DNA of 64,000 nucleotides from an uncultured Desulfobacterales bacterium. GTDB taxonomy: Bacteria; Desulfobacterota; Desulfobacteria; Desulfobacterales; B30-G6. Below, in pieces: positions 5,745 to 39,377 of this stretch. Positions within the stretch are counted from its first letter, which is position 1. Each line of letters begins with the position of its first letter. A program made the position numbers and the translations under genes. The DNA lies in NCBI GenBank assembly GCA_964452555.1, contig CAYVMI010000024.1, forward strand, positions 11,250-75,249, read 5' to 3'. The notes beneath the pieces are model-generated. The model ran no database searches. It worked only from the letters and a program-made list of their open reading frames with translations, and had not been told where the DNA came from.

Positions 5745-6641
5745 ATGTCAATCCATCCATTTGAATACCATGCACCCAAAAGTCTATCGGAAGCTGTTGA
5801 GCTATGTGTCCGCCTGGGCTTGAATGCCAAAGTACTTGCTGGCGGTACCGATCTTTTGCCAGCCCTTAAATCCCGGACCGTCCGCCCAAAAGCCGTTATC
5901 AGTCTCCATGCCGTTAAAGACCTGAATTACGTGGCAAAAGAAAACGGCCACCTGCGGGTGGGTGCATTGGCCCTACACGCCGATCTGGCTGACAATTCGC
6001 TTATCAAGGATACCGTACCGATTCTGGCTCAGGCCTGCAATTTGATCGGCTCCTGGCAGATCCGCAACATCGCCACCATTGGCGGCAATCTGTGCAATGC
6101 ATCGCCGGTGGCAGACACAGCCGGCCCCTTGTTGGTGTTAGATGCTACCGTGATATTGCAAGGTCCCGAAGGTCGTCGAGAGATAACGGCACTCAATTTT
6201 TTTACCGGACCCGGTACCACTGATCTCAAACCGGGTGAACTTTTAAAGGAAATACGTATCCCCTTGCCAGGTACCGGGTCGGCTGGATGTTATTTGAAAC
6301 TGATGCGCCGTAAGGCGCTTGATCTGGCTTTAGTCGGGGTAGCCATTCAAGCAGAACCAGACCATGTAAACGGAACACTTGGGGAAATCGCCATTGCGCT
6401 GGGCGGTGTAGCGCCCACACCTATACGTGTACCTGAGGCGGAGAATTTGCTGACTGGGCTGGACTACACTGCCGCCAGAAAAGCTGTACCCCAGGCCGCG
6501 CAGACAGCGGTGGCGGCCTGCAATCCCATCTCCGATGTGCGGGCCTCGGCCGAATATCGTCGTAGTATTACTGAAATGTATGTGACCAAAGGACTCACGG
6601 CATTGCTCGAAACCCTGGAGAAAAGGAGCACCTCATCATGA
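5745..6641 (+). CDS. Molybdo-hydroxylase (xanthine dehydrogenase/CO dehydrogenase family) FAD-binding medium subunit
   Basis: CoxM/XdhB-like: LAGGTDL, ATIGGNL and a C-terminal SDVRASAEYRR motif. Translationally coupled to the next gene (ATGA overlap). Confidence 0.85.
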   Translation: MSIHPFEYHAPKSLSEAVELCVRLGLNAKVLAGGTDLLPALKSRTVRPKAVISLHAVKDLNYVAKENGHLRVGALALHADLADNSLIKDTVPILAQACNLIGSWQIRNIATIGGNLCNASPVADTAGPLLVLDATVILQGPEGRREITALNFFTGPGTTDLKPGELLKEIRIPLPGTGSAGCYLKLMRRKALDLALVGVAIQAEPDHVNGTLGEIAIALGGVAPTPIRVPEAENLLTGLDYTAARKAVPQAAQTAVAACNPISDVRASAEYRRSITEMYVTKGLTALLETLEKRSTSS

Positions 6642-7126
6642 AAATCCCTCTCAATATTACGGTAAACGGAGAGAAGCTCAAGCTGGCAGTTGAGCCCCAG
6701 CACACCCTGTTGGAGGTTATCCGCCAGGAATTGGGATTGACAGGTGCCAAAGAAGGCTGCGGTGTGGGCGAGTGCGGGGCCTGCACCGTGCTGCTGAACG
6801 GCCGGCCGGTGGACTCGTGTCTGGTTTTGGCACTCCAGGCCGAAGGGGCCGAGATTGTCACCATCGAAGGATTAGCCAAAGGTGAGCAGGCCGATCCTTT
6901 GCAAACCGCCTTTGTGAAAAAGGGCGCCGTACAATGCGGTTTCTGTACACCCGGAATGATCCTGACTTCCAAAGCTTTATTGAAACAATCTGCCAATCCG
7001 GAAAGGGAGGAAATCAAGCAGGCCCTGTCGGGAAACTTTTGTCGTTGTACCGGATATAACAAGATTGTAAATGCGGTGCAGTTTTGTGCCCATTCGCCGA
7101 CCAAGAAGGAGGCTCCCCATGACTGA
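6638..7126 (+). CDS. Molybdo-hydroxylase [2Fe-2S]-binding small subunit
   Basis: Contains CGVGECGACTV and QCGFCTPG...CRCTGY, the two 2Fe-2S cysteine clusters. Confidence 0.9.
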   Translation: MKIPLNITVNGEKLKLAVEPQHTLLEVIRQELGLTGAKEGCGVGECGACTVLLNGRPVDSCLVLALQAEGAEIVTIEGLAKGEQADPLQTAFVKKGAVQCGFCTPGMILTSKALLKQSANPEREEIKQALSGNFCRCTGYNKIVNAVQFCAHSPTKKEAPHD

Positions 7127-9407
7127 TTTCGACGTTATCGGCAAACCCATCCCTCAGATTGCCGGAATGCAAAAAGCCATGGGGCGCACCCGGTTCGTCT
7201 CCGATCTGGCGCTGCCCTACATGCTCCACGGAGCGATTCTGAAAAGCCCGCATGCCCACGCGCGCATTACAAGGTTGGACACCTCCCGGGCAAAGCGTGT
7301 GCCCGGTGTGCAGGCGGTTATCACTTTTGCCGACACGCCGGGAATCAAGTATGGCCCCCGTTCCGAAGACTGGTACATTTTTGCCAAAGACAGGACGCTG
7401 TTTCACGGTCATGAAGTGGCGGCTGTCGCTGCCGTGGACCCGAAAACAGCGGCGGAAGCGCTGGAGTTGGTCGATGTCGAGTACGAGCCCCTACCGGCGG
7501 TGATCGATCCTCGCAAAGCCCTTGAGGAGGGAGCGCCGCTGGTCATCGAGGAGAAGGGCGACAATCTGGCTTTTGAATTTAAAATCGATTCCGGGGAAGT
7601 CGACCGGGCCCTGGATGAATCCTATTTCGTCTACGAGGACCACTACTACACCAATCAGGTCTACCAGGCCTACCTGGAACCCATGGGCTGTGTGGCCGAA
7701 ATGGACCTTAATGGGCGTTATATTCTCCACACCGGGACCCAGATCCCCAACATGATGCGCATGACCTACGCCAAGGCTTTGGGCGTACCTGCGGACCGAA
7801 TTCGGGTAAAGGTGCCCGAATATGGTGGTGCCTTTGGGGGCAAGATGGAGCACAATATCCATCTTATCGCTGCGTTGCTCTCCCAAAAAGCAGGTCGACC
7901 GGTGCGATTGTTTTACAACCGCCATGAGGATTTTATCGCCGGAAATCCCCGGGTACCCATGCATTTTGATATCAAGCTGGGGGTGGACAAAAACGGACGC
8001 ATCACGGCCAAGGATGTTCAAGTGGTTGGTTCAGCCGGTGCCCGCCTGGTATACGGCCACATTATCCTGATGACAGCCTGCTATCGGGTGGATTCGCTGT
8101 ATAAATTTCCCAATGTTCGTGCGCTGGGATTAACGGCCTACACCCACACCGTTCCCACGAGTTGTTATCGAGGATTCGGCAATGCCCAGGCCACTTTCGT
8201 TCTGGAATCGAGCTTGGACATGGTGGCTGAAAAACTGGGCATGGATCCGGCTGAACTGCGGCTAATCAACGATTTGGGTCCCGATTCCACCTCCATTCAT
8301 GGTTGGAAGATCAATTCCAACGCTCTGGCTGATTGTATCCGTTCGGCCACGACCAAAGCCGATTGGCAACGTAAGCGAGCAACAAAAAAACCGTTACGCG
8401 GCATCGGCCTGGCCTGCTGTAACCATGTGTCCGGCAACCGGCCCTTTGCCCGCGAGTTTGACGGCGGCGCCGGAATCGTTCACGTGGGCCGCGACGGCCG
8501 GGTTACGGTTTTCCACGGAGAATCAGACATGGGTCAGGGCCAGAACACTGTTTTTGCCCAAATAGCGGCTGAGCGCCTCGGGGTCCCGCTTGATTACATC
8601 AGTGTGGCCATGGTGGATACAGACATCAGTCCTTTTGGCTGCGGCAGTTTCGCTACCCGCGGAACACTGATGGGTGGTAATGGGGTACTAGCGGCGGCCG
8701 AGGACGCCTTTAACCAGCTGGCGAAGGTAGCCGCCGATCTGCTTGAAACCGATCCGACAAACGTCAGGTGCCGCAAGGGAAAATTTTTCTCCACCGGGGC
8801 ACCCGATCAAACCGTGGATTGGTATGCCGTAGCCGATCAAGCCGCCATCGCCCGCAAGGGAGCTCCAATCATGGGACAGGGATTTTATGATCCGCCCACG
8901 GTCCTGCCTGATCCGGAAACAAAATACGGCAATATATCACCGGCCTACCCTTTTGCATGCCAGATTGCCGAAGTGGAAGTCGACCCGGACACCGGGCAGG
9001 TGACGGTGACTAGTTTCGTCGCCGCGCATGATGTGGGACGGGCCCTGAATCCCATGGCGCTGGAAGGCCAGATTCAAGGCGGTGTGGCTCAGGGCATGGG
9101 TTGGGCCTTGACGGAAGACATGGCCTACGATGAAGATGGACGCCTGCTCAATCCCGATTTTGTGGACTATGTGGTGCCGGGCCCCCTGGATGTCCCTGAG
9201 ATTGAAACCATCCTGGTGGAACCCGTTGAAAAGGAAGGGCCATACGGCGCCAAAGGAATCGGTGAACCGGCACTCAACCCCGCCATGGCCGCGATTACCA
9301 ATGCGATTTACAATGCTACCGGCATCAGGTTTAAAACCTTGCCTGTTTCACCTGAAAAAATGCTCAATGAGCTTAAACGGCAAAATGAAAAGATAGAAAA
9401 CAAATAG
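7119..9407 (+). CDS. Molybdo-hydroxylase molybdopterin-binding large subunit
   Basis: Aldehyde oxidase/xanthine dehydrogenase a/b-hammerhead and MoCo domains (GGAFGGK, YRGFG, C-terminal GIGEPA). Start placed at ATG 7119 behind RBS GAAGGAGG rather than the track start 7071. Confidence 0.9.
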   Translation: MTDFDVIGKPIPQIAGMQKAMGRTRFVSDLALPYMLHGAILKSPHAHARITRLDTSRAKRVPGVQAVITFADTPGIKYGPRSEDWYIFAKDRTLFHGHEVAAVAAVDPKTAAEALELVDVEYEPLPAVIDPRKALEEGAPLVIEEKGDNLAFEFKIDSGEVDRALDESYFVYEDHYYTNQVYQAYLEPMGCVAEMDLNGRYILHTGTQIPNMMRMTYAKALGVPADRIRVKVPEYGGAFGGKMEHNIHLIAALLSQKAGRPVRLFYNRHEDFIAGNPRVPMHFDIKLGVDKNGRITAKDVQVVGSAGARLVYGHIILMTACYRVDSLYKFPNVRALGLTAYTHTVPTSCYRGFGNAQATFVLESSLDMVAEKLGMDPAELRLINDLGPDSTSIHGWKINSNALADCIRSATTKADWQRKRATKKPLRGIGLACCNHVSGNRPFAREFDGGAGIVHVGRDGRVTVFHGESDMGQGQNTVFAQIAAERLGVPLDYISVAMVDTDISPFGCGSFATRGTLMGGNGVLAAAEDAFNQLAKVAADLLETDPTNVRCRKGKFFSTGAPDQTVDWYAVADQAAIARKGAPIMGQGFYDPPTVLPDPETKYGNISPAYPFACQIAEVEVDPDTGQVTVTSFVAAHDVGRALNPMALEGQIQGGVAQGMGWALTEDMAYDEDGRLLNPDFVDYVVPGPLDVPEIETILVEPVEKEGPYGAKGIGEPALNPAMAAITNAIYNATGIRFKTLPVSPEKMLNELKRQNEKIENK

Positions 9408-12796: not shown

Positions 12797-14230
12797 ATGA
12801 AACCGATTATTCAATTTTTATCCGACCAAGAAGTTGAGATTCTGCACGTCCAATCGTTGAAAATCTTAAAAGAAATTGGCATGCGCCTGCCCCACGATGA
12901 AGCCATTGAGCTCTTATCTCAACATGGAGTTGAGATCGTGGATAAAAATGTGGTGCGGTTTCCTGAGGAATTGGTCTCCAGCACCATTAAAATGCTGCCC
13001 AAACTGAAAGACGTCACCCTGTACGGGCGGGACCCCAAACATGATGTCACTTTTGACAAACACGAACCAGCCTTGGCCTGCATGACCATGGCGGTAAACG
13101 TTATTGATCCGTATACGCGCCTTAAACGGCCGGCCACCAACGATGACTTGGCGGTTTTGACACGCATGGCTGATGAACTGGAAAATATTCGCGTAAACGG
13201 CGGTCTGGTGACACCGCAGGAAGTCCCCAAAAATTTCAACGACTGGTACACTTGGGCCACCACCATTAAAAATACGAGTAAGCATATCACCGGCGGGATG
13301 CTGGGAGCCAGCTGTGTCCAAGACGCTGCAAAAATGGCGGCCATTGCGCTCGGGGATGAGGAGCACTTCTATGCCAGGCCATTCATTTCCGGCTGGGTTC
13401 TGACCCTGCCGCCCCTTGGAATCGATGCGGAGTCCCTGGAGGCCTTGATGGAAATGAGCCGCATGAACATACCGGCCATCGTCAGCTCCGGCCCCATACT
13501 GGGGACTTCTTCTCCAGTGACCATCGCCGGTACTGTTGCCCAGGCCCACGCTGAAATCCTGGCCTGCATCGTTGTCTCTCAGTTAGTGAACCCGGGTGCG
13601 CCTATTGTCTATACCAGTTTTGCCCGCGGAATCGACATGAAGAGCGGTAATATTTCCATGGCATGCCCGGAATTTGGGATTTTGAAAGTTGCCATGGCTC
13701 AAATGGGAAGATATCTTGACCTGCCGGTACGCATGCCCGCTTTGCTGCGGGATTCCAAAACTATTGATGCTCAGGCCGGATACGAAACCGGCATGATTGG
13801 AACCGTAACCGGTCTAACGGCCGACCTCATGGATGCCATGCAGTTGGATATGGATTTGGTGGTGGATTTCCCTGATCTGGTTTTTTGCAATGAATGCATG
13901 GCCGGTATCAGCCGTATGGCCAGAGAATTGAAAGTAAATACAGAATCGCTGGCCCTGGAGGCCATAGCAAATGTCGGTCCTGGAGGTACTTTCTTAAGTC
14001 ACCCCCATACTTACGATAATTTTCGCAAGGAGCTATGGATACCATCTTTCATGGAACGCAGAAATTGGGACTTGTGGGAAGCGGACGGGGCCCTGGACAT
14101 ATTCAAAGTTGCTGAAAAGAAAACCCTTGAAATGCTGGAGCAAAAACCACTCACCTTGCTGTCAGAAGAAATTGAAAAGCAAATCGATACAGTCGTAGAG
14201 CGGGCCCAAGCCAAACACACTGAGCCTTAA
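12797..14230 (+). CDS. MttB-superfamily methyltransferase, non-pyrrolysine type (complete)
   Basis: 477 aa, uninterrupted, with no in-frame TAG. Full-length similarity to ORFs 2-1177 and 50398-51861. Confidence 0.9.
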   Translation: MKPIIQFLSDQEVEILHVQSLKILKEIGMRLPHDEAIELLSQHGVEIVDKNVVRFPEELVSSTIKMLPKLKDVTLYGRDPKHDVTFDKHEPALACMTMAVNVIDPYTRLKRPATNDDLAVLTRMADELENIRVNGGLVTPQEVPKNFNDWYTWATTIKNTSKHITGGMLGASCVQDAAKMAAIALGDEEHFYARPFISGWVLTLPPLGIDAESLEALMEMSRMNIPAIVSSGPILGTSSPVTIAGTVAQAHAEILACIVVSQLVNPGAPIVYTSFARGIDMKSGNISMACPEFGILKVAMAQMGRYLDLPVRMPALLRDSKTIDAQAGYETGMIGTVTGLTADLMDAMQLDMDLVVDFPDLVFCNECMAGISRMARELKVNTESLALEAIANVGPGGTFLSHPHTYDNFRKELWIPSFMERRNWDLWEADGALDIFKVAEKKTLEMLEQKPLTLLSEEIEKQIDTVVERAQAKHTEP

Positions 14231-15357: not shown

Positions 15358-15933
15358 CACTCCTCCTATATGGAAATCGTATTGGACATCTTTTATAGCG
15401 TTTCTATACCAGCATATCAAGAGGTGGCAATTTTGGACAATTCACGCATGGTCCTCTAAATCAGGTTTTTCAACTACTGAATAGATGATCAAAATATAAG
15501 ATCGCTGAACATTAAAAAAGCACCCAAATCAAATCGTTGGTTTTATGTGGCGCGCTTATACAATTTAAAATACTCCCAATTCAAAAATTCAAAATTGCTG
15601 AATCAAACCAAATCTTTTTTCAAAGCATTCAAGCGTAAGTATCAATATGGTAATAGGAAGTTTAAATGTAGATTACATCAAATTGAGGAAATACTTCTAT
15701 ACGTTAACTTTATGATTATGTCTTTTTGTCAATATTTTCTTCGTGTTATCGCAAGTCACAACATAATTTTTTCGGTCATATGTTTTGATTTCTTTACGTA
15801 GTTGGGTGAATATCAGTCAAAAATATACCGTCATTTTCCTGCAACCGTCGTTTTGCCATTACAATAGGTTTCTTTTAATAACGTCAATATGACATATTTA
15901 TTGTCCGTGGTGAGGGCATTGTAGCCAGCGGTA

Positions 15934-17172
15934 TTAAACAGTATGGATATCAAATTCCATTAAAACCACCTGTGTCAATTTTTTAAGAATTTTTGAAGAT
16001 AGATTGACTGTGATTTCCTTTTTTCTTCCATACCGCCCTTTCGATAAAAGCCGCGCCTGGATAAATCCATACATATCTAATTCGGAAACCAAATCAGAAA
16101 AAGCCCGTTGGGTAAGAGTCTTGAGATCAGCTTTATCGCAAAAGGAACAATATATTGCATAGGCCTCGCCGGTATATAATGGTTTGGCACTTATTGAATT
16201 TCTGGAAATAATTGAATACAAAACAGCCTGAAGTTGCTTCGGGCTTGATTTAATCATCGCGACATATTTATCTTTCTCTATTTCCTCCAAGGCCTTATCC
16301 AAAAGGTCTAACGATATTGCTGTCCCCTCTTTTTCAGCCATGTGAGATGATTTTGATAACAGTTCGACAGCCTTTCGTGCATCTCCATGTGTTCTGCTGG
16401 ATATAGCGGCGATTTTATCAACAACACCCTCTTCTATAAATTTTTCATTCAGGGCCTTTTTTATTCGTAATGAAAGAATTTTCTGGAGATCACAGGCATT
16501 ATAAGGCTCGAACAACAGTTCATTTATCTTTAAAAAAGATTTAATACGCGGATCAACATTATCCTGCCAATTCAGTCTATTTGAGGTGAACACAATCAGC
16601 AGCTTCGCTGATATTTTTTGTGGCAACCGTTTTACAATAAATTTTAAAAAGCTATCCAAATCACGTTTGATATGATCGATTTCGTCTATAAAGAGGATTA
16701 AATAGCCTTTGTAATCAACGATTTTTTCCTCAATCTTGCTCATCAATTCATCCAGAGATATTCCCTTTTTATATCGCTTTGCTGCGTTTAGAAAACAGGC
16801 AAGGTCATTTAATGCGCGAAAACATGGTTTGGGCGTAGATAGATCAAGATGGATATATTTCATGTTGATTTTTCGTTTTTCACACAGCGACTGGAACAAA
16901 TTTAGGAAATAAAGCATGGTTACTGTTTTGCCTGCACCGGTTTTTCCAAGGAGTGAAAGATGGATGGGATGATCATTTCGAAAGATAGGTGCGAAGTGGG
17001 AGCTTAATTCACGGATTTCTCTATCCCTGACATCAATATCGAAAATTTCACGTAATACCTCAAATTGCTCTTCTCGATGCAGTTGCTCATCATCTAAATA
17101 TTTTCTGTTCTTGATAATCGTGTTTTTAAGAAGAGTTTTTATTTGTTTTTCGATTTTTATTTCAACATCCAT
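15934..17172 (-). CDS. Orc1/Cdc6-type AAA+ ATPase with C-terminal winged helix
   Basis: Walker A GKTGAGKT, Walker B LILFIDEIDH, sensor-1 VFTSN, sensor-2 GDARKAVELL. C-terminal LTQRAFSDLVSELDMYGFIQARLLSKGRYGRKKEI matches the Cdc6 winged-helix signature. Confidence 0.85.
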   Translation of the reverse strand: MDVEIKIEKQIKTLLKNTIIKNRKYLDDEQLHREEQFEVLREIFDIDVRDREIRELSSHFAPIFRNDHPIHLSLLGKTGAGKTVTMLYFLNLFQSLCEKRKINMKYIHLDLSTPKPCFRALNDLACFLNAAKRYKKGISLDELMSKIEEKIVDYKGYLILFIDEIDHIKRDLDSFLKFIVKRLPQKISAKLLIVFTSNRLNWQDNVDPRIKSFLKINELLFEPYNACDLQKILSLRIKKALNEKFIEEGVVDKIAAISSRTHGDARKAVELLSKSSHMAEKEGTAISLDLLDKALEEIEKDKYVAMIKSSPKQLQAVLYSIISRNSISAKPLYTGEAYAIYCSFCDKADLKTLTQRAFSDLVSELDMYGFIQARLLSKGRYGRKKEITVNLSSKILKKLTQVVLMEFDIHTV

Positions 17173-17177
17173 TCTCG

Positions 17178-17395
17178 CTCCACCGGAAATTTACCAAGCT
17201 ATGTTGATGTTCTGAATGTACTCATATAAATAATTTTTGGTTTTATCAGTGGGTGTAGTTTTCCGATGGAAAATGTCAGGCGGGTGTGGGGATTACATAT
17301 TTTTTCTTTTTCTTGTTTGTTTCTATATAGAAAATAAATAATATGAATAGCATAAATATAATTATAATAGATTCCATCGGAAATTTACTCTCGCT
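17178..17395. other. Origin-like module: three TTCC-N4-GGAA dyad repeats around a ~75-bp extreme AT tract
   Basis: CTCCACCGGAAATTTACC (17178-17195), GTTTTCCGATGGAAAATGTC (17258-17277, opposite orientation) and ATTCCATCGGAAATTTACTCTCGCT (17371-17395). AT tract at 17296-17370. GGGTGT boxes at 17251 and 17283. Confidence 0.45.
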
Positions 17396-17478
17396 GAAAT
17401 AAACCCCTATTGGGAAAAGATTAACTCAGACCGGAGAACAAAGAAAAACAGTCTATAATTTGTAGAGTTTTAATGAAC

Positions 17479-17841
17479 TCATCTCAAATGCGGATGATAA
17501 GTCAGTTTGCTCTGAATTTTATAAGGCCTGGGATGTGACACGGAATGTATTCGATATGCATCTCTAAACGCAGATCGAGAGTAACCAACAGTCAGTTGAA
17601 TATCATCGCCTTTATTAATAAGGCGATCGACAGAATCAGTTTTTCGATTAAACGGATTGCTTAAAAGTCCGTATAAGTTCCCTATGCTTGGTTTCTGATT
17701 TTCATCCCTGAACTCAACATGATAATGCTTATAGGTACCTTTCTGTTCGACAACAATCCCGATCATACCATTGCCATACCTGTATTTGTCTATGACCTTA
17801 CCGCTTATATACTCACCCCTGATATAATCAATTAATGCCAT
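17479..17841 (-). CDS. Hypothetical protein (ORFan, 120 aa)
   Basis: Clean ORF in the AT-rich island. No recognisable motif and a weak RBS. Confidence 0.45.
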   Translation of the reverse strand: MALIDYIRGEYISGKVIDKYRYGNGMIGIVVEQKGTYKHYHVEFRDENQKPSIGNLYGLLSNPFNRKTDSVDRLINKGDDIQLTVGYSRSAFRDAYRIHSVSHPRPYKIQSKLTYHPHLR

Positions 17842-17902
17842 ATTATTTTGGGGTAAAGGATATGATCTATAAATACTTTTTGATTTTCATAAAAAAATGT
17901 TG

Positions 17903-17941
17903 CCTCGTTTCGTGAGATTTTAGAGAAAACACGAAACGAGG
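17903..17941. promoter_or_regulatory. Perfect 12-bp inverted repeat in a divergent intergenic region, covering the RBS of the downstream gene
   Basis: CCTCGTTTCGTG (17903-17914), 15-nt loop, CACGAAACGAGG (17930-17941). The right arm contains the GAGG used as RBS for ATG 17950. Confidence 0.5.
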
Positions 17942-17949
17942 TGATAGAA

Positions 17950-18327
17950 ATGGTAAAACCTGCGACAACAAAGCAGATAGCGTTAATAAAACAGCTAAAA
18001 CCAGATAGCGCCGACATCAGCTTGAACAGTTTTGAGGCATCGAAACTGATTGGCCGGTTAATTCAAAGTAAGGGACAGAGCGGCAATCTATTAGGAATTG
18101 AAAAACAGATAAATGAACCCCGGCTCGGGATGGCAATGAAAGAATGTTATAAAATTTGGACCAGATGGGGGAACAGAGATTTTCTTTTTGGAGACCGTAG
18201 AATTCGATTTATCAAAGAAGCTATTTTAACATATTATCTTTTTACAGAAATAGAAAATCGACTCAGAAATAATTTTTATAAAGGCGAAAAGTATATAGAA
18301 GAACTTGCCCCAGATTGGATTCCATAA
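17950..18327 (+). CDS. Hypothetical protein (ORFan, ~125 aa)
   Basis: ATG 17950 lies 8 nt after GAGGTG (track start GTG 17941). N-terminus is MVKPATTKQIALIKQL. No confident family assignment. Confidence 0.5.
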   Translation: MVKPATTKQIALIKQLKPDSADISLNSFEASKLIGRLIQSKGQSGNLLGIEKQINEPRLGMAMKECYKIWTRWGNRDFLFGDRRIRFIKEAILTYYLFTEIENRLRNNFYKGEKYIEELAPDWIP

Positions 18328-18633
18328 AGCTCCCTGGCTAAAACCAGGGTTCTTGTGGTCATTTCTCCATTTGGAGTTGATGAAGTATGATTTCTTTTTT
18401 TTCGATATAACAACTGGATTTTAAGCAAACTCTTTCTCAATTTTGGTTTTCTACACACCTAAAGCTTTAAAAGTCACTTCAAGTGCTCGGATATAAACTC
18501 TAAGAGTTTATTATCCTCACCTTGCAGCTAAACATTTAAATCTTCCCCCCAAAGGGGTCGGCTAAAAACATTTAATCCCCCCAAAATATTCCGTCGAAGG
18601 TTCACAAAGTGAAACCTTCGCGGAGGTATTAAA

Positions 18634-19218
18634 ATGAAAACTATAGCAAACATCGGTTGGAAAAATGAAGAACTGATTGTCCAGGAGAACCTACCAGTAT
18701 GTGCTGGCTTGAAAGTGATTCGTAAAAACGATCCCAATTACGGTCTCTCGGATGAGGAGATCCAAGACAGGAATGAATTTATTCGTTGTTACTTATTAAG
18801 GGATTTTGAGCCGCTTTTAAAAATACCAATACAAGTTGCCGAAGATGATTTTTTCATACCAGAGCATGATGTATGTTCTTCTGAATACACTGCGTTTAAC
18901 ACCCATGATTTTCAGAAAAGAATGCGGCCCTTCAATAGATACGCATACGCGATGAAAATAATATTAGAACGTGTAAAAGACCTTGCGATTTTATATTCAG
19001 TAGTAAGTTCCCGGGATGGCAAAGAAGAGATTTTTAGACGATTCGAATCACTGGTTGAATATCATTTCAGGGGTCGGCTTTTGTTCCTTGTTCGAAGATA
19101 TAGATATGCATATAGTGATTACGGGAGAATCAAATTAAAACAAAATATCGGCGAAATTAATCGAAGAATTCTTGAATGTAAAAGGATATGGGAGCAATTT
19201 GCTCCCTGGGACGTTTGA
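18634..19218 (+). CDS. Hypothetical protein (ORFan, 194 aa)
   Basis: RBS GGAGG at 18622-18626. Preceded by a hairpin (18595-18620) and two direct repeats. Confidence 0.55.
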   Translation: MKTIANIGWKNEELIVQENLPVCAGLKVIRKNDPNYGLSDEEIQDRNEFIRCYLLRDFEPLLKIPIQVAEDDFFIPEHDVCSSEYTAFNTHDFQKRMRPFNRYAYAMKIILERVKDLAILYSVVSSRDGKEEIFRRFESLVEYHFRGRLLFLVRRYRYAYSDYGRIKLKQNIGEINRRILECKRIWEQFAPWDV

Positions 19219-19403
19219 GTATGATAATATTGGAACTCCTTTGTCCCGTGATAAGGAAAACCGATCCTATATATAAATTTTTCGTTTTCACGCATTTTTA
19301 TGTTTTCTTTCCACTATACTTATAAAACACGGCGATAGATTTGTTGATATTCCCGCTTACGATTACCTCCATTGTCATTGAATAAACAATGGAGGTGCTC
19401 AAC

Positions 19404-19694
19404 ATGAATGCGTACGAACTATATGAAGTAAATAAAGCGATCAATGATGTCAGTAAAGGCTACAATGAGATCGGTCGAAGCCAGAAAACGTTGGCTCCAA
19501 AAACCAACAAATGGGATTATATATTAAGGAAAATTTGCCTTGGCTGTAATAAAACTTTGGGAATCTATGAGGTTCAAAATAATCTTGCTTTTTGTTTCCA
19601 GTGCCGGAAATATTTATTTCCGGAAACAGTATATCATCAGGATCCAATCAAAAACCGATTCCGTTCATTACGATCCAGAGGACATCCGATGTAA
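19404..19694 (+). CDS. Hypothetical small protein with a CxxC...CxxC zinc-ribbon-like motif
   Basis: ATG 19404 follows RBS GGAGGTG. Contains CLGCNKT...CFQCRK. Confidence 0.45.
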   Translation: MNAYELYEVNKAINDVSKGYNEIGRSQKTLAPKTNKWDYILRKICLGCNKTLGIYEVQNNLAFCFQCRKYLFPETVYHQDPIKNRFRSLRSRGHPM

Positions 19695-19789
19695 CGCGAC
19701 TTATGCCTGGCATTGCAAATATAGGGGTGGTTTTTGCAATATATTTGATCTTCAACTGGGGTCCTATAAACTGTAAATGCGCCAACAGC

Positions 19790-20236
19790 CTAATGCGCAT
19801 TCCCGCCTTGAAAAGCAATTCTAAGTGACAGGTTATCGCAAACAAACTCGTATGGTAGTGGGGAACCTATTGATCCCCGATATGCGTTCGTTGGGATAAC
19901 AAAGGCAAATTCTCCAGGTGGTATACAGCCGATATTAAATTCCCCAGATTGATTAATGCTGGCAGATTTAATTGGCGTTTTTTCGCCGATTTCATCCATG
20001 ACAGCGTCATATAATGTTGTTGACGTGCTGTATAAAAACACACGCGAGTTAGCAGTAATATCGCCTGAAACCGTACCATGGATATTTACACAGTTGCGCG
20101 GATATTCGTCGGCCAGGCGATTTTTTGGGTTAGAAATGGGTATATTGTTCTGACAACCGGTTGCTAATAATTCAACCAGGCAGATGAATACTATTACGAT
20201 TGTCAAACATATTGATTGTAAAAATTTGGTACTCAT
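19790..20236 (-). CDS. Predicted lipoprotein, beta-rich (carboxypeptidase-regulatory-like fold possible)
   Basis: Signal peptide with lipobox LLATGC. The mature part is rich in beta-type segments (IHGTVSGDI). Confidence 0.55.
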   Translation of the reverse strand: MSTKFLQSICLTIVIVFICLVELLATGCQNNIPISNPKNRLADEYPRNCVNIHGTVSGDITANSRVFLYSTSTTLYDAVMDEIGEKTPIKSASINQSGEFNIGCIPPGEFAFVIPTNAYRGSIGSPLPYEFVCDNLSLRIAFQGGNAH

Positions 20237-20330
20237 AGGTACTAATTTTATTGGAAGGGTTTTTATATTTTGCGGTTTTACTTTGCCGTGTGAGCAAGTA
20301 TTATCGTAAAATATTTAAAGGGAAACAATC

Positions 20331-20678
20331 ATGAGCAGGTTTATGCTTGGACCAAATTTCAATCGCCTCTACGGCGATGAAGGATATAAGATAAGATATA
20401 TGCGGGATCTGCAAATACAGATAAGAGAGGGGTATTTGAGATTCTGTAGATTGTTGGGAAAATCTACTAATAAGGTTTTTAATGTAGCCGATGAGCGAGA
20501 ATTGGTAAAACTATTCTACTGGCTACAAAATGATATAAAGATATACAAAAAGATTCGAGGGACAGGAATCGAGGGAGTTATAGGTGGTGATATAACAGAT
20601 ATTGAAAAAAAGTTGATTAAAAATAATCAGAGTTACCGGTTGCGTCGGGGACTATCGTCCCCTAGGCCCCGACTCTAA
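20331..20678 (+). CDS. Hypothetical protein (ORFan, 115 aa)
   Basis: ORF with RBS-like AGGGA. No recognisable motif. Confidence 0.4.
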   Translation: MSRFMLGPNFNRLYGDEGYKIRYMRDLQIQIREGYLRFCRLLGKSTNKVFNVADERELVKLFYWLQNDIKIYKKIRGTGIEGVIGGDITDIEKKLIKNNQSYRLRRGLSSPRPRL

Positions 20679-20688
20679 AGAGTCGGGG
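20667..20688. terminator. Stem-loop between convergent genes
   Basis: CCCCGACTC-taaa-GAGTCGGGG, preceded by a second hairpin GGGGAC-tatc-GTCCCC (20647-20662). No clear U-run on either strand. Confidence 0.35.
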
Positions 20689-20741
20689 CAAATAGGGGCT
20701 GAAGCTATTTGCCAAAGATTGTGGGAAGAGGTTCTATATAT

Positions 20742-22223
20742 TCAGGGCAAAATAGAAATACGAAGATAATAAAGGAAAATAAGAGATAACCATCCCATAT
20801 CTACAGGCACTTGATATAGCCGTCCAGGTGCAAAACGAGCTTTAATATGGCGCATTCCGGGTACGATCACGCGTACAACCGATACCCCGGCCGCAGGTGG
20901 AGTATAATCCAACACGAAAATTGGTCGCCCTTTTTGTTTGCCTATTGAGGTGCATAAATGCAGCTTTTCTTTCAAGTTACCTGGTTGGGCCAAAAATCGG
21001 TCCACAGCTTTTGGCGATCTCATTTTACCGGGTTGCATTTGGGGGTTATTTTTAATGAAATCACTTTGGGCCCACAAAATAAAGTTGCGTGCAGATTGAT
21101 CCAAAGATTCTAATCCACCGACGTCAATTTGTTTTTGTATGATCCGTTTGAGTGCGTGTACCTGCAGCATCTCACGCACTGCAGATTTGAGAGCTGATAA
21201 GTAATCGAAGTTTGCACCAAACCCCATGTCAATATCTGATTCATCACTGTTCATCGAAATTGCAGCAATCACGGGAATACCGAGATCATGGGTCAAGTCC
21301 AAAGCATAAAACCGACGATCCAATATTTCCAGCCAGCGCAGGCAACCATCTAATTCCGTATCCCTAAAATATTCTGGATCTATTGCCGGGCGGATGATCC
21401 GATTGTACCACCAAATCCCCACGGCGTCCCTTTCCACCACTTCCAGAAATCCCGAAACAATGGCTTCCTTACGCGTGGGGCCTGCGGCACAGCCATTGCT
21501 ATCGGCGATCAGATAATTTCGATCGTGGGGACAATGCAGATAGCAAAGTCCGGCGGGAACAAAATACGGTTTTCCTTCTGGATAGGAAGATACCTCAACC
21601 CAATCCAAAAGGTTATCGCTCCGGACGGGGTAAGGAACGCGATGCCGCTCTCCGAATTGGTTGTCCCGGACGTTCCTTTCTTGATATTGACGTTCACTGA
21701 AAAGAAGGAACTGATGAGGGTGAAGGCCTTTAGTACCTAATTCGCTTTTTTTTGCCCTGGTGATTTTAATATCCTCACGCCAGGTGATGGCCATCGTCTC
21801 CACCAGTTCTCCCAGAGCAGTTAAGATCCCTGTTTGGGGGGTAAATTCTGAACCGGCTGTATATATGTCTTGTTTCGCTAAATCATTTTCTTTTCCTCCG
21901 GACTTGATGTCTGGTTTTTTGGGGATTGCGGCGTAACTGAAAATTGGAAAATCATCATCGGGATTGATTGATACCAGCGCCCGAAGGCATGGTTCACAGG
22001 TCCTACAAACTGATCGGAATTGTTTTGCTAATTCATTTGACTGCCATTCTACTACCGTATTAGGATCAAAGTCTTCAGCAACGATTAGATTCCAATCGCT
22101 TAAAGCATAAAGAACATGGTAAACCTCTTCAGATTCAAACGATTCGCAAAGTTTGCGAACGATGTCTTGTACCGTGCGATGACCGTTAATCAATGCAGCA
22201 ACTTTAACAAGCATATGATTCAA
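20742..22223 (-). CDS. YcaO-domain protein (ATP-dependent peptide backbone-modifying enzyme) with an extra ~110-aa N-terminal region
   Basis: SNGCAAGPTRKEAIVSGFLEVVERDAVGIWWYN is the YcaO core. The VVRVIVPGM...RFAPGR tail is also YcaO-like. N-terminal LINGHRTVQDIVRKL...VYHVLYAL resembles the helical part of PqqD-like RRE domains. Confidence 0.85.
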   Translation of the reverse strand: MNHMLVKVAALINGHRTVQDIVRKLCESFESEEVYHVLYALSDWNLIVAEDFDPNTVVEWQSNELAKQFRSVCRTCEPCLRALVSINPDDDFPIFSYAAIPKKPDIKSGGKENDLAKQDIYTAGSEFTPQTGILTALGELVETMAITWREDIKITRAKKSELGTKGLHPHQFLLFSERQYQERNVRDNQFGERHRVPYPVRSDNLLDWVEVSSYPEGKPYFVPAGLCYLHCPHDRNYLIADSNGCAAGPTRKEAIVSGFLEVVERDAVGIWWYNRIIRPAIDPEYFRDTELDGCLRWLEILDRRFYALDLTHDLGIPVIAAISMNSDESDIDMGFGANFDYLSALKSAVREMLQVHALKRIIQKQIDVGGLESLDQSARNFILWAQSDFIKNNPQMQPGKMRSPKAVDRFLAQPGNLKEKLHLCTSIGKQKGRPIFVLDYTPPAAGVSVVRVIVPGMRHIKARFAPGRLYQVPVDMGWLSLIFLYYLRISILP

Positions 22224-22498
22224 CCCTATGACAATAAAATTATAATATTAGGATTTTTTTACATGTAATGTAATAATTGCAAATATAGAACATATATGGT
22301 AGGCATCAGAGTTACGAACGCTACGTACACATCCTATTCTTTTCCGACTCCACGCTGAATTACAATTCACCTAACATTGCTCGCTACTGCATTAAGTCAA
22401 TTCACGCTGCAATCACAAGAGTTAAAGGTCCACCACTACTACGGTAAGTGATGCCATCCACGGGCTTACCAGATCCCACCAAACAAAGGAGGTTACTC

Positions 22499-22795
22499 AT
22501 GCCGAGATTAAACCTGTCCAAAACGGATTGTAAAAAAATGGGAAAGTTGATCGGTGATGCTTGGCGTCATCCTGACAAGCGGAAAAAACTACTCGTAAAC
22601 CCAGAAAAGGAAATGACCAAAGCGGGCATTAAAATACCAAATGTTGACAAGATTCGGATCGTCGCCGTCGAAGATACCAAAACGACAATTCATTTGGTTT
22701 TGCCAGTACGGCCGGATAGCGTCACCTTTACCGATCTGAAATCAAGTTCGTTTCAGTTAGATTTGGGGCAAAAACTTTTTGCTGCCTGCCGCTAA
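22499..22795 (+). CDS. NHLP (nitrile-hydratase-like leader peptide) family RiPP precursor
   Basis: RBS AAGGAGG precedes ATG 22499. The leader reads LIGDAWRHPDKRKKLLVNPEKEMTKAGIKIPNVDKIRIVAVEDTKTTIHLVLPVRP. The C-terminal tail is DSVTFTDLKSSSFQLDLGQKLFAACR. Confidence 0.8.
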   Translation: MPRLNLSKTDCKKMGKLIGDAWRHPDKRKKLLVNPEKEMTKAGIKIPNVDKIRIVAVEDTKTTIHLVLPVRPDSVTFTDLKSSSFQLDLGQKLFAACR

Positions 22796-22807
22796 AACAC
22801 CGATCGA

Positions 22808-24607
22808 TCACATATCCGGCAAACGGGGTAATCCGGCCAGAGTTAGGCCGTTAAAGAAACCTTTAAGATCTTTTTTGGGCTTAATGGGTACAATCTGAAA
22901 AAGCCAACGGATGTAATCAACTTCATCAGCGTCGGAAGGACCGATCCAGATTTTTTTAATCCCTTGGACAAATGTACCGGCAGCATTGCGGGCGTTTTCC
23001 TGATCCCCAACCAGGGCATATGCGGCGACTAAAAATGCATGGGTCTCAGGTGAAATTTTTTCAAGGCTGCCGATGGTTGTGATGCAACTCTCGTATTCTC
23101 CTGCTAGAAATTGAATGGTTGCCAGATAACCAAGATAATATTCCGGATGGGTTGGGTTAAGCCGAATAGCTTCGCGGGCCTGACTCAGTCCCAAGGCATG
23201 GTGCCCCAGATAGGCCATGCCCTGAGCCCAGGAAATGCATATGTCCGGATCGATCGGATTCAAATCGGCCGCCACATCGAAATGCTTAAATCCATTTTCA
23301 TAATCCCTGGATAACATATAGATCCAGGCGATATTTAAATGATTGCGGGAATCCGCCGGATCGAGCTCCAGGGCTTTACGGGCATATTGAAAGGCTATCT
23401 GCCGATCTTCGACATCGTTTACATTTCCGGGTCCTAAAATGGTTTTGGAGCTATATACCGAGGCCAAGCCGGCATAGGGACGTGCAAACTCCGGATAAAG
23501 TTTAATCGCCTTTTTAAAGAGTTTAGCGGCTTTCTCGTCGGCTTGGCGATCCCAGGCCTCCAACAACTTATTGCCCCGTAACCAAAAATCATATGCCTTG
23601 TGGACCTTGGTGGGGACATCCTGCGTCGAAACCAAACGATTTTGTATCAAGTGGGTTTCCAAGGTACATACAATGCGGCTGACCACGAGGCTCATGACCG
23701 ACGGACCCTCCTCGGGTGCTACCGTATAACGATCGGCCCAAATTTGATTTTCGCCTTCACACTCCACCAATTGAACTGTAATACAAATCTCCGCGCCCAT
23801 TGAACGGACACCGCCCATCAAGAGGTACTGGGCCCCGAGCTCATTAAAATATCTTTTGGGACTTGCGGTCATTTCCTTGTAGGAAAACGACGTTGTTTTA
23901 GCAATGAGGTGAATCGTGCGGAACCTGCATATATCGGTAATGATATCTTCGATGAGCCAATCATTGATATATTGATGTTCCTTATTGGCGCCAATATAAT
24001 CAAAGGGCTGAACAGCCAAGATAGGCTTTTGGGTCAGCATCAGGCCGGGCGACAACTTATCATCGACTTTAGGTATTAAATCACACGTTTCCATCAGGAC
24101 GCTGAAGATGCGTATCGGTTGGGTTTTATTTTTAACTTTTTGTTCGCGCTTGAACTTAAACCCGGCCGATACTTTCTCCTCCACTAAATCGCGAACGATA
24201 CTGGATACACAAATGCCTCCGGGAGAAGCAAGTTCCTGAATCCTGGCGGTGACATTGACAGCGTCGCCATATATTTTTTTCCCGTCACGGATGATATCAC
24301 CCAGATTGATCCCCACCCGGAAATTCATGCGCTGATCAGCGTCCAATTTGGCATTTTTCTTGCCGAGCTGGAGTTGGAAAGCAATCGAACACTCAACACA
24401 ATATTGAACAGATGAAAACTCAGCCAAGATCGAATCTCCGGTCATATCTACTACGCGCCCGCCAAATGCCCCTGCAAGCTCTGTGAATATTTGACAGTAT
24501 TCCAGAAGCCGCTTTCGAGTTGCATCCTCATCCGCCGCCATCATCAAGGAAAATCCCACCACATCGGCATACAAGATGGCAATCAATCTGCGATCAGTCG
24601 GTTTCAA
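22808..24607 (-). CDS. Class III adenylate/guanylate cyclase domain protein with central TolB-N-like region and C-terminal TPR repeats
   Basis: ILYADVVGFS, GDSILAEF, FRVGINLGD and GDAVNVTARIQ form the CHD. The C-terminal half is TPR-like (AYDFWLRG, LDPADSRNHLNIAWIY). Confidence 0.85.
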   Translation of the reverse strand: MKPTDRRLIAILYADVVGFSLMMAADEDATRKRLLEYCQIFTELAGAFGGRVVDMTGDSILAEFSSVQYCVECSIAFQLQLGKKNAKLDADQRMNFRVGINLGDIIRDGKKIYGDAVNVTARIQELASPGGICVSSIVRDLVEEKVSAGFKFKREQKVKNKTQPIRIFSVLMETCDLIPKVDDKLSPGLMLTQKPILAVQPFDYIGANKEHQYINDWLIEDIITDICRFRTIHLIAKTTSFSYKEMTASPKRYFNELGAQYLLMGGVRSMGAEICITVQLVECEGENQIWADRYTVAPEEGPSVMSLVVSRIVCTLETHLIQNRLVSTQDVPTKVHKAYDFWLRGNKLLEAWDRQADEKAAKLFKKAIKLYPEFARPYAGLASVYSSKTILGPGNVNDVEDRQIAFQYARKALELDPADSRNHLNIAWIYMLSRDYENGFKHFDVAADLNPIDPDICISWAQGMAYLGHHALGLSQAREAIRLNPTHPEYYLGYLATIQFLAGEYESCITTIGSLEKISPETHAFLVAAYALVGDQENARNAAGTFVQGIKKIWIGPSDADEVDYIRWLFQIVPIKPKKDLKGFFNGLTLAGLPRLPDM

Positions 24608-24741: not shown

Positions 24742-26340
24742 TTACGGCAAACTGAATGCCCTCTCGACAGCTTTAGAGGCGTTTACCCGTCCATATCCAA
24801 AGTAGAGCGAGTGCCCATTGATGAATCTGTCCTGAATGGAATCCATATCGGCTGTTTCTTCGATAATCGCTTTCACCTGAAGTCCGCTCAAATCGGGTTT
24901 AACCGATCGCACCAAGCCGGCCACACCGGCTACAATCGGGCAGGCACCAGACGTGCCGCCAAAACCTGTATAGATCTTTCCGGACTCGTAGCCGGGTCCA
25001 TGCTGCTCGTTATCGGTTGTATAGAGTTCATTCTCAGGCAACCACTCACCCGTTAGCGGATCAAAATTATCACTCGGGGCGCAGATATTAATTTCTCGGC
25101 CCCAATTACTATAAAGCGCTTTCTGGTTGGCACTTGTAATGGCAGCCACCGCAATGGTATGCCGATGCGCGGCATATCCATTTAAAATACTGCTTTCCAC
25201 TACGCGTGTATTAGGGTCCTTCGGGTGCCGTTTATACTCAAAATAGGTGTTATCATCATCACGGATGGGTGCATTGTGATTACCGGCGGCGAAACAAATG
25301 ATGGTACCATTGTGACGCGGACCACCATCAACCGCCAGTTTGTCGATAATATCGGCAATCGGTCGCGGTATAGGGTCATAACATGGCACGGAGGTCCAGC
25401 TGCAAGAAATAACATCGGCCTTTTGACCCACAACTTCGAACATATCTCGAACGCTTAATGTTTCCAATGCGATCCGATTTAGCCCCGTCATGCGAACAGG
25501 CATGAAAGCACAGCCTGGTGCAACCCCGACGATACGGCCGGCGTTCTCCTCAGCAATGGCCAACCCTGCGCATGCGGTACCATGCTTGCCACTTGTGACC
25601 CCTGGATAATCGGACCAGGGTTTCTCATCGCCATCCACCCAGTCTGTTGGATGCACGACCTTATTATCCCCACTAAATGCCGGATGAGATAGATCGCAGC
25701 CGTCATCCATAACAGCGATAACGACTTCCCGATTGCCTTTGGTAATTGTCCAGGCTTGATGGGCAGAAATCTGATCAAGATGCCAGAGGTTGCTCCAGGC
25801 GATCGGGTCAGATGGGGCCGGCAAATAATAGCGCTCCATAAAATTGGGTTCCGCGTAAACCACTTCCGGTTGTCTGATCAGGTCATGGGCAACCTTAAGG
25901 GGATTCTTGCCTGCCTTGTCAGTGACCCGAACGATGAAGGTGTTATCGATACCCGCGCATTTTTTATATAATTCCAGCCCATGGAAATGAAATAAGGAAT
26001 TAACTTCACCAGCCCGAGGTAAAACACGTACGATCAGCAGATCGGTCAGGTAATAGCGCGTCCCGGTCCTCTGTGGGGAACGATAGGCATGATGGCAGAC
26101 GATCTTATTTTTTTTTGATCTCAATTTTTTCATGGCGGCGTTGCGATTCTTTTTCTTCACCTCTATTCTTAAGAGCCGCCGTCCAATCTTGCGGACCTTT
26201 TTAGGTTTTATCAGAGAGTTGATTCTTTTCTCATCGTTATCATTTTCCAGTACAGCCGTAAAATATGACGGCTCCCTCTCTACTTCAAATTGTTCGCCGC
26301 CACGTAACATGACGCGGCCATCATGAATTGACGCATTCAT
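24742..26340 (-). CDS. S8 (subtilisin-family) serine peptidase, no signal peptide seen, Lys-rich N-terminal region
   Basis: Catalytic Asp (VIAVMDDG), His (HGTACAGLA) and Ser (GGTSGACPIVAG). The N-terminus reads KKKNRNAAMKKLRSKKNK. Confidence 0.9.
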   Translation of the reverse strand: MNASIHDGRVMLRGGEQFEVEREPSYFTAVLENDNDEKRINSLIKPKKVRKIGRRLLRIEVKKKNRNAAMKKLRSKKNKIVCHHAYRSPQRTGTRYYLTDLLIVRVLPRAGEVNSLFHFHGLELYKKCAGIDNTFIVRVTDKAGKNPLKVAHDLIRQPEVVYAEPNFMERYYLPAPSDPIAWSNLWHLDQISAHQAWTITKGNREVVIAVMDDGCDLSHPAFSGDNKVVHPTDWVDGDEKPWSDYPGVTSGKHGTACAGLAIAEENAGRIVGVAPGCAFMPVRMTGLNRIALETLSVRDMFEVVGQKADVISCSWTSVPCYDPIPRPIADIIDKLAVDGGPRHNGTIICFAAGNHNAPIRDDDNTYFEYKRHPKDPNTRVVESSILNGYAAHRHTIAVAAITSANQKALYSNWGREINICAPSDNFDPLTGEWLPENELYTTDNEQHGPGYESGKIYTGFGGTSGACPIVAGVAGLVRSVKPDLSGLQVKAIIEETADMDSIQDRFINGHSLYFGYGRVNASKAVERAFSLP

Positions 26341-35699: not shown

Positions 35700-36272
35700 A
35701 TGATGACACTTTACACCGGCACAGGCGATGGAGGCCTAACGGGATTGTTCAGTGGGGAACGCATCAGTAAGGCGGATGCCCGCATCCAGGCTTCCGGCGC
35801 CGTGGATGAGCTCAATTCCATTTTAGGTGCCCTGATTGCAGAAATACCGGACACCCAGACCGATTTGATCACAGCCTTGCATAGCATTCAGTCGGACCTG
35901 TTTCTGATTGGGGCCTGGATATCAACCACACCGGATTCACCGGCATTATCGCAATTGCAGCCTTTTGATAAACAACGGGTAAGCATGCTCGAAAATGGGA
36001 TCGATGATCTGGAAGCGCTATTACCGCGTCTGAACCGATTCATTCTACCCGGCGGCCATATCTCGAGCGCCTGGGCCCATATTGCCAGGTCGGTCTGCAG
36101 GCGTTGCGAGCGCCATACCGTCATGCTTTATGAGCACCTAGATACTGAAAAGTTGCCGCCTGCCGTCCAGCATATCCTCCAGTATCTCAATCGGCTGTCG
36201 GACTACTTGTTTGTGGTAGCCCGTTATTGCAACCAATTCAACAATCATGACGACGCCGAGTGGCAGGGATAG
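35700..36272 (+). CDS. PduO-type ATP:cob(I)alamin adenosyltransferase
   Basis: YTGTGDGGLTGL N-terminus, DELNS, and the LPGG...AHIARSVCRRCER pattern. Confidence 0.85.
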   Translation: MMTLYTGTGDGGLTGLFSGERISKADARIQASGAVDELNSILGALIAEIPDTQTDLITALHSIQSDLFLIGAWISTTPDSPALSQLQPFDKQRVSMLENGIDDLEALLPRLNRFILPGGHISSAWAHIARSVCRRCERHTVMLYEHLDTEKLPPAVQHILQYLNRLSDYLFVVARYCNQFNNHDDAEWQG

Positions 36273-39372: not shown

Positions 39373-39377
39373 ATTGA

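Follow-up and report, generated by a model that had tools for sequence, protein, structure and literature searches.

A short-form YcaO gene and a divergently transcribed gene encoding a precursor peptide, related to the nitrile hydratase leader peptides (NHLP), were analyzed in a 64,000-nucleotide stretch of DNA (the window) from an uncultured Desulfobacterales bacterium (assembly GCA_964452555.1, contig CAYVMI010000024.1, positions 11,250 to 75,249). Next to them are a gene for a class III cyclase-homology protein carrying tetratricopeptide repeats (TPR) and an S8 subtilase gene (Table 1). In the order S8, cyclase/TPR, precursor on the opposite strand and short YcaO, these four genes appear to make up a compact and rare cassette resembling those for peptides that are made by the ribosome and modified after translation (RiPP).

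Table 1. Genes, domains and sites at the YcaO locus (positions in the window; aa, amino acids; ORF, open reading frame; RRE, RiPP recognition element; AF2, AlphaFold2)
Feature	Position	Strand	Description
Short-form LynD-type YcaO gene	20742..22214	-	490 aa, ATG at 22214; ORF extendable to TTG 22223
Aberrant YcaO tail LSLIFLYYLRISILP plus stop	20742..20789	-	Replaces the conserved RSxPISENDLTxxPIPI (PxPx) tail
YcaO residues 43-60, short hairpin IVAEDFDPNTVVEW bridging to the YcaO domain	22035..22088	-	MAFFT against long forms; AF2 strands 44-45 and 54-57
YcaO residues 1-42, three-helix remnant (α1-α3) of the RRE winged helix	22089..22214	-	Profiles, MAFFT, AF2; β-strands 1-3 absent
Divergent intergenic region YcaO/precursor	22215..22498	.	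Reported boxes at 22351-22370 and 22398-22416
NHLP-like precursor gene	22499..22795	+	98 aa; structured domain at about residues 7-78; conserved C-terminal ...LG-x6-C-R
Cys97 codon	22787..22789	+	Sole conserved Cys; invariant in the 8-sequence alignment; predicted thiazoline site
Class III cyclase-homology + middle + TPR protein gene	22808..24607	-	599 aa; Pfam Guanylate_cyc, TPR
S8 subtilase gene	24742..26340	-	532 aa; Pfam Peptidase_S8, E 1e-41; candidate leader protease

Gene content and conservation of the cassette

An earlier note on this DNA had described the YcaO and precursor genes as a minimal two-gene RiPP module without partner enzymes. A RiPP-like pair lacking the usual partners was indeed present: among those ORFs of the 64-kb window that were scanned, as in the related loci, no E1-like/Ocin-ThiF partner, TfuA, SagB-type dehydrogenase, radical SAM enzyme, LanM or ABC/C39 exporter was detected. 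TfuA, the test for a thioamide-type YcaO, was missing both from the scanned window ORFs and from every related locus. The arrangement recurs in about ten lineages, and in none of them was it located inside a classical thiazole/oxazole-modified microcin (TOMM) or thiopeptide cluster; the constant embedding in a known cluster, which the earlier note had set against its own proposal, was never seen. However, the absence of partners had been overstated. The cyclase/TPR and S8 genes were overlooked, and to speak of no partners is misleading because across divergent lineages the former adjoins the pair and, in five of them, the latter adjoins the former. Related loci keep three to four genes together, and the conserved unit therefore appears to be a cassette of this size and not a two-gene module.

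The order cyclase/TPR, precursor, YcaO was seen in the window and L001, in L002-5 and L094, in the metagenome JGI 3300042731, in L011, L007/8, L009/10 and L091, and partially in L093. The outer flanks were completely different between these loci. Identity between lineages drops to about 31% for YcaO and about 24% for the precursor, and the lineages with an adjacent cyclase/TPR gene share 31-63% YcaO identity. In every related locus with a readable flank, the cyclase/TPR protein (598-613 aa) is encoded next to the precursor or, in the metagenome fragment P0132, next to the YcaO itself. Between distant lineages its full-length identity is 35-40% (window against L091, 35%, E 8e-117). The S8 gene adjoins the cyclase/TPR gene in five lineages, namely the window, L002/L094, JGI 3300042731, L011 and L091. 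L091 is the complete locus most distant from the window, and the S8 proteins of the two share 35% full-length identity (E 8e-100). The window S8 protein has no signal peptide, as expected of a cytoplasmic protein, and an N-terminal domain of about 190 aa.

This distribution bears on the proposal of the earlier note that the two genes alone are a self-sufficient RiPP module and that their neighbors are mere syntenic passengers. Stand-alone YcaOs are known in bottromycin biosynthesis (PMC12338566), the S8 gene is missing in the two lineages L007 and L009, and the remnant of a recognition element at the YcaO N-terminus, described below, is real. Yet over the whole range of 31-63% YcaO identity the cyclase/TPR gene remains a direct neighbor, even where the outer flanks on both sides are completely different, and full-length orthologs of both the S8 and the cyclase/TPR protein are present in the most distant complete locus. 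We regard a self-sufficient pair as highly improbable.

Several further observations were made on the proteases. In L002 (6027-7627) and L094 (8471-10164) the S8 gene is split into an N-terminal ORF of about 88-120 aa and a second ORF of about 445-483 aa. The split occurs at the same place in several independent assemblies, which suggests a real frameshift or pseudogene and not an error. An assignment of the S8 protein to the PatA/PatG-type cyanobactin proteases was not supported, and its best PDB matches were generic subtilases. In one lineage an M14 zinc carboxypeptidase gene (L092:1900-3648, minus strand) is located directly downstream of the short YcaO gene, and its product could trim the C-terminal Arg/Lys following the conserved cysteine of the precursor.

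In the cyclase domain, D15 and D58, the presumed metal-binding aspartates of a class III cyclase, and N118, the presumed transition-state Asn, were invariant, and the presumed catalytic Arg is present in the window protein. Three Gemmatimonadota loci (L087:4397-7000, L014:3955-6822 and L019:1366-4038) carry this middle/TPR module (profile positions 190-533) on a Ser/Thr kinase instead, and these genes adjoin those of a fused YcaO of full length and of an NHLP precursor containing 2-4 Cys. What is conserved therefore seems to be the TPR module, whose output domain, cyclase or kinase, can be exchanged. This would be in keeping with a role in sensing or regulation, or possibly with that of a peptide receptor or scaffold. 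The P0132 fragment encodes a protein of 658 aa in which the TPR C-terminus is joined to a short YcaO by a linker of about 45 aa, leaving no room for an antisense precursor; this is a genuine fusion or else a read-through, the precursor of that lineage being encoded elsewhere.

The cyclase/TPR protein might also be the missing partner of an enzyme that is not self-sufficient, with its middle/TPR part binding the NHLP precursor and presenting or activating it in place of the lost E1-like and recognition domains. Its adjacency wherever the flank is readable, its constant length of about 598-613 aa, the fusion in P0132 and the kinase-fused module beside fused YcaO and NHLP genes in Gemmatimonadota would agree with this, as would the loss of the catalytic Arg in L007/L009, which suggests a conserved function other than cyclase activity. 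On the other hand, the TPR module also accompanies full-length enzymes that carry a recognition element, where a scaffold role is not required, and the invariant metal-binding Asp and Asn residues fit a signaling enzyme. A role as the missing partner is considered improbable.

Domain organization and C-terminus of the YcaO protein

All 14 close and distant full-length family members begin with MLVKVAALI..., and the start of the window protein was therefore placed at the ATG given in Table 1. The YcaO ORF recognized in the earlier note, which has the motifs SNGCAAG...FLEVVERD, was verified by Pfam (PF02624, E 2.9e-67, 227.8 bits against a cut-off of 25.7, residues 124-458). The family profile matched LynD 350-774 with E 3.8e-97, and MusD (E 1.4e-96) and TruD were matched as well. 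An AF2 model from the 14-sequence alignment was too poor (predicted local distance difference test, pLDDT, 47), and a model from 102 sequences (14 short-form proteins and 88 fused cyclodehydratases) was used instead, with pLDDT 91 and a predicted template modeling (TM) score of 0.92. Its top Foldseek matches were to LynD (TM 0.76). The window YcaO retains 22 of the 22 columns that are invariant in the 102-sequence alignment, among them E136, E139, E258, E261, R262, E348, R455, R460 and G464-L466. Its next-best database relatives were "TOMM precursor leader peptide-binding proteins" of about 750 aa, which combine PF21084 with PF02624 and cover about 70% of the query. By these results the protein is a cyclodehydratase of the LynD/MusD/TruD type without the E1-like domain, descended from fused E1-like/YcaO heterocyclases (LynD/PatD/MprC type) and with an intact ATP/Mg catalytic core.

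The N-terminus had been proposed in the earlier note to be the helical half of a PqqD-type recognition element within an extra region of about 110 aa. The first part of this proposal held, in that the first 45 or so residues are homologous to the RRE helices of fused cyclodehydratases. A profile of residues 1-60 matched 60 of 106 other homologs, mostly fused proteins of about 750 aa, always at residues ~40-84 and with E-values down to 3e-10, and MAFFT aligned residues 1-40 with residues 36-75 of the long forms. The extra region is really about 60 aa long, because homology to LynD begins already at residue ~61. In the AF2 model, helices were located at residues 2-8, 15-22 and 28-40 (pLDDT ~95) and were followed by a short hairpin. 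PF21084, a winged-helix model of 76 positions, is located at about residues 6-81 in the long forms (Pfam); the window N-terminus matched only its positions 33-69, with E 0.044 and under the cut-off, so that a complete RRE was not found. The match to PqqD was weak (E 0.053).

The RRE β-strands were missing in all 14 short-form members. No match to the ThiF/E1 region was detected in the short YcaO, which has 490 aa compared with about 750 aa and lacks long-form residues ~86-320. The stretch after residue 40 (IVxDDF...PxTVVCW) was aligned by MAFFT with the E1-domain motifs VVLTDDY and PGxTGCW, and the hairpin IVAEDFDPNTVVEW may be a relic of these two motifs. Taken together, the alignments indicate that the YcaO has kept the RRE helices α1-α3 and lost β1-β3 and nearly the whole E1-like domain.

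The C-terminus of the window protein differs from that of its family. Its last 15 residues (LSLIFLYYLRISILP, from a T-rich coding sequence and ending ...YYLRISILP) stand in place of the family tail ...ENDLTxxPIPI. The residues E482, L483 and P487 are shared by 13 of the 14 proteins of the family, and of the 102 LynD-type sequences at least 90% have E482 and L483. A frameshift was ruled out as the origin of the odd tail, as no other frame encodes the conserved sequence, and no displaced relic of it was found at the far edge of the adjoining island or anywhere else in the window. The protein sequence is identical on three contigs; therefore, the replacement is not an assembly error.

The change sits exactly where the GC content drops from about 0.45 (0.44-0.47) to 0.34-0.39. 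This is the edge of a low-GC island of about 5.3 kb (15400-20740; GC 0.34-0.39, compared with 0.45-0.52 in the flanks), the right edge of which abuts the YcaO stop codon. The island holds six small orphan ORFs and, on the minus strand (15934-17172), the gene of an AAA+ ATPase that resembles Cdc6/Orc1 and has a winged-helix domain. These six ORFs had no Pfam match, a PADLOC scan of the island genes gave nothing meaningful, and no tRNA gene was detected in the 64-kb window. The island looks like an inserted mobile or foreign segment.

The PxPxP motif has been described as canonical for YcaOs that form azolines, with a possible part in catalysis for the terminal carboxylate (PMC12338566). Since the proline-rich tail is so regarded, the window enzyme may be impaired, either weakened or inactive. 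Insertion of the island could have destroyed the tail and left in this genome a decaying relic that yields no product. The position of the T-rich replacement exactly at the GC drop, the presence of the motif in at least 90% of the 102 relatives and its canonical status are in agreement with such decay. Against it, the remainder of the YcaO ORF and the precursor, cyclase/TPR and S8 genes are intact and keep every invariant residue, three contigs carry one and the same protein sequence, and the new tail is of similar length and still ends ...ILP. We consider a relic possible but unlikely.

Precursor peptide and predicted modification

The divergent 98-aa precursor ORF described in the earlier note was confirmed and is preceded by a ribosome-binding site, AAAGGAGG. 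The note had further called its leader a textbook NHLP leader, and of this the likeness to NHLPs stood. A profile built from eight family members matched 8TB1, the nuclear magnetic resonance structure of the MprE7 NHLP leader, with E 2.6e-5 over residues 7-78, and nitrile hydratase alpha with E 1e-5. The precursor contains NHLP motif 1 (xxAWxxPxxRKKLLxNP) and keeps the α1 Trp as well as a V(X)4L-like stretch. The description as textbook did not hold: the match to TIGR03793 (NHLP) reached 43.6 bits (E 2e-11), under the curated cut-off of 50.9, and motif 2, ELSxEELxxVAGG with its double-Gly site, and the Cys/Ser/Thr-rich core were absent from all family precursors. This motif and a Cys-rich core are present in the NHLPs encoded beside long-form enzymes. 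Membership in NHLP-Burk (TIGR03795) or elsewhere in the NHLP clan was not supported, TIGR03795 giving no match even at E 10.

Twelve positions were invariant in the alignment of eight precursors (M1, P2, R3, G15, W22, H65, V67, P69, P72, L89, G90 and C97). All members start with MPR and share an HxVxP..P motif. At the C-terminus a single Cys is followed by Arg or Lys, as in AACR, GSCR(LPWKP), GGCR, GGCK and SGCK, with the consensus LG-x6-C-[R/K]; the precursor of the distant locus L091 also keeps it (...ASGCK). In total, the Cys was kept in nine of the ten complete precursor sequences seen.

The divergent spacer had been reported to contain repeated AATTCAC/CACGCTG boxes. These consist of two copies each of CAATTCAC and CACGCTG and are exact over 7-8 nucleotides only. 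As operator sites they were rejected: 48% of shuffled sequences hold a repeated 8-mer, which puts the repeats at the level of chance, and none of seven orthologous spacers contains the boxes. The orthologous divergent spacers are 95-208 bp long. In two of them (L002:9906-10000 and L011:6224-6319, 95-96 bp) a stretch resembling GGTYGTCAAYRA lies directly upstream of the YcaO start, and the window carries TTGTCATAGGGTTGA at the equivalent position. This stretch may have been conserved as a promoter or operator.

Folded NHLP leaders bind the RRE of MprC bimodally, with α1 on the RRE helices and L(X)4L extending the RRE β-sheet (Agarwal and co-workers, PMC12455567). As the short YcaO keeps the helical half of this interface and the precursor keeps the α1 Trp, the simplest model is docking via the helices. 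The folded NHLP domain of the precursor would dock by protein-protein contact, its α1 helix with the invariant Trp22 lying on the retained RRE helices. The YcaO would then use ATP to phosphorylate the Ala96-Cys97 amide carbonyl, and the Cys97 thiol would cyclize to give one thiazoline (-18 Da). The product should be an azoline and not an azole, because no dehydrogenase is present. The cytoplasmic S8 protease would afterwards release the C-terminal peptide, and the cyclase/TPR protein would be a partner dedicated to regulation or sensing. Trimming of the terminal Arg/Lys may come later, since C-terminal heterocycles are usually formed before removal of the follower (PMC12338566). On balance, we consider it somewhat more probable than not that the four-gene cassette forms one thiazoline at Cys97 in an ATP-dependent reaction, with subsequent cleavage by the S8 protease.

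A different YcaO chemistry was also weighed, either an ATP-dependent removal of the residue or residues after the Cys as in MusD, or formation of a backbone amidine or thioamide. MusD is as close to the window protein as LynD (E 1.4e-96; Foldseek) and hydrolyses a C-terminal GV dipeptide with ATP (PMC10885120), the precursors bear a "follower" of 1-6 residues after the Cys, and one precursor, from L093, has no Cys at all. However, the Cys is conserved in nine of ten complete precursors. The MusD substrate tested was already azole-bearing (PMC10885120), so that the peptidase activity adds to heterocyclization and is not an alternative to it. Neither TfuA nor a sulfur-transfer gene was found in the window, and amidine macrocyclization, which needs a free N-terminus, is unlikely given a folded leader of 78 aa. 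Another chemistry is thus judged rather improbable.

Several points weigh against thiazoline formation and S8 cleavage as proposed. The canonical leader-binding strand, RRE β3, is missing, which leaves leader recognition unexplained. In E1-dependent systems such as BalhC/D the partner domain strongly activates the YcaO, and the deletion form might for this reason be inactive alone. The azoline chemistry is deduced from homology. The score against the SagD family TIGR03604 (185.7 bits against a curated cut-off of 219.25) was below the threshold, although the two are clearly related, and the precursor likewise fell short of the TIGR03793 cut-off. The proline-rich PxPxP-type tail, present in 13 of 14 relatives, is not found in the window YcaO. 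The L093 precursor (323-640, minus strand) ends in ...IMGGRR, with Arg for Cys, on a contig of about 2x coverage; this may be due to a sequencing error, or the gene may be a pseudogene or a genuine Cys-less variant. L007/L009 lack the S8 gene. In these two loci the catalytic Arg of the cyclase domain is replaced by Gly, and the canonical Lys presumed to specify the substrate is absent throughout.

Relation to known systems and biological meaning

The closest known enzymes are LynD, PatD, TruD and MusD (PDB 4V1T, 4BS9, 7U58). The YcaO domain is homologous to theirs over about 430 residues (E ~1e-97, ~31% identity, TM 0.76), with the same ATP/Mg residues and recognizably homologous RRE helices α1-α3. 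However, the window protein is about 260 residues shorter and has no RRE β-strands, E1-like body or Zn-Cys4 site. The substrates differ too, being a folded NHLP-like protein with one Cys here and a short leader with cassettes in the cyanobactin systems, and PatA/PatG-type proteases are missing here, the S8 protein not being specifically PatA/G-like.

The MprC/MprE and NstD/NstC systems (PMC12455567, PMC11583998) likewise combine a structured NHLP-type leader with a LynD-like YcaO, and NHLP α1 contacts the RRE helices. The YcaOs of those systems are of full length and have a complete RRE, the precursors contain L(X)4L...GG and multi-Cys cores, and the dehydrogenase MprD is present, while the cassette described here lacks the β-sheet half of the interface, the GG motif and a dehydrogenase.

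NHLP-Burk TOMM systems of Burkholderiales have a C-terminal Cys or Cys-Cys with a short suffix, no Gly-Gly and no ABC exporter, and a large kinase is encoded alongside (Haft et al., 2010, PMC2887384). The window cassette shares with them (TIGR03795, the fused cyclodehydratase TIGR03882 and TIGR03903) an NHLP-related precursor without Gly-Gly, a short suffix at the C-terminal Cys, the lack of an ABC exporter and a large neighboring signaling protein with a cyclase-homology domain. It differs in that the precursor is single and not a tandem pair, has no 15-aa insert and does not match TIGR03795. Furthermore, the neighbor is a cyclase+TPR protein of 599 aa instead of a kinase/cyclase of ~1300 aa (TIGR03903, 19.6 bits against a cut-off of 705.75), and the YcaO is of the short form.

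The stand-alone YcaOs of bottromycin biosynthesis, BotC and BotCD, also have no E1-like/Ocin-ThiF partner gene, and the heterocycle lies beside a short C-terminal follower (PMC12338566). They were, however, not among the relatives recovered, and the nearest homologs of the window YcaO were all LynD-type fused enzymes. The bottromycin precursor has a follower and not a leader, and we know of no RRE remnant in the bottromycin stand-alone YcaOs.

Elsewhere in the window, three genes of the MttB family (trimethylamine methyltransferase-like) were identified at 2-1177, 12797-14230 and 50398-51861. Near them are a cobalamin adenosyltransferase gene (35700-36272) and a xanthine-dehydrogenase-type molybdoenzyme set (5745-9407). 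These genes suggest quaternary-amine or methylotrophic metabolism in an anaerobe (FlpD-type gene at 62565-63947). The region 36967-45010 contains a cluster of three hybrid histidine kinase/response-regulator genes, one with MASE11 and one with PAS, and further on a sigma-54 activator (56309-57838) and a HAMP-SpoIIE phosphatase (57813-59501) are encoded.

The short form is very rare. Its N-terminal profile matched only nine proteins among 1.84 billion representatives, one full-length family member (L011) was found among 185,579 GTDB representative species genomes, and a precursor search of JGI metagenomes (241 million records) gave one further locus, of the same lineage as L002. A published description of the short YcaO form or of a module partnered by a cyclase/TPR protein was not found in the literature covered, which was incomplete. 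The cassette is a variant of the known NHLP/TOMM kind and not a new kind.

It is conceivable, though we give it little credence, that the cassette is a self-contained peptide-signaling circuit and not an antibiotic pathway. The thiazoline-bearing tail of the NHLP protein would be freed by the S8 protease and bound by the TPR receptor, which would switch an output domain; this may be the cyclase here and the Ser/Thr kinase in the Gemmatimonadota relatives. If so, a TPR receptor of RRNPP-like type, coupled to cyclic AMP or phosphorylation signaling, would have a RiPP-type modification for its ligand, and a LynD-type enzyme would be able to work with only the helical half of the RRE.

In this family nature has made a deletion experiment on the azoline-forming enzymes of the best-studied class. 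Neither the leader-binding β-sheet nor the E1-like domain, usually deemed necessary for recognition and activation, is left, yet the protein is conserved across lineages sharing only about 31% identity. The retained helices are exactly those that contact leader α1 in the bimodal model (PMC12455567), and this model is therefore directly testable with the short YcaOs. If active, they would offer a much smaller heterocyclase for engineering. The window itself has less practical value, as its copy of the YcaO is without the conserved tail. The strict linkage to a cyclase/TPR protein, paralleled by kinase/TPR proteins in relatives, provides a handle on the long-unexplained association of signaling proteins with NHLP-type TOMM clusters, which was noted in 2010.

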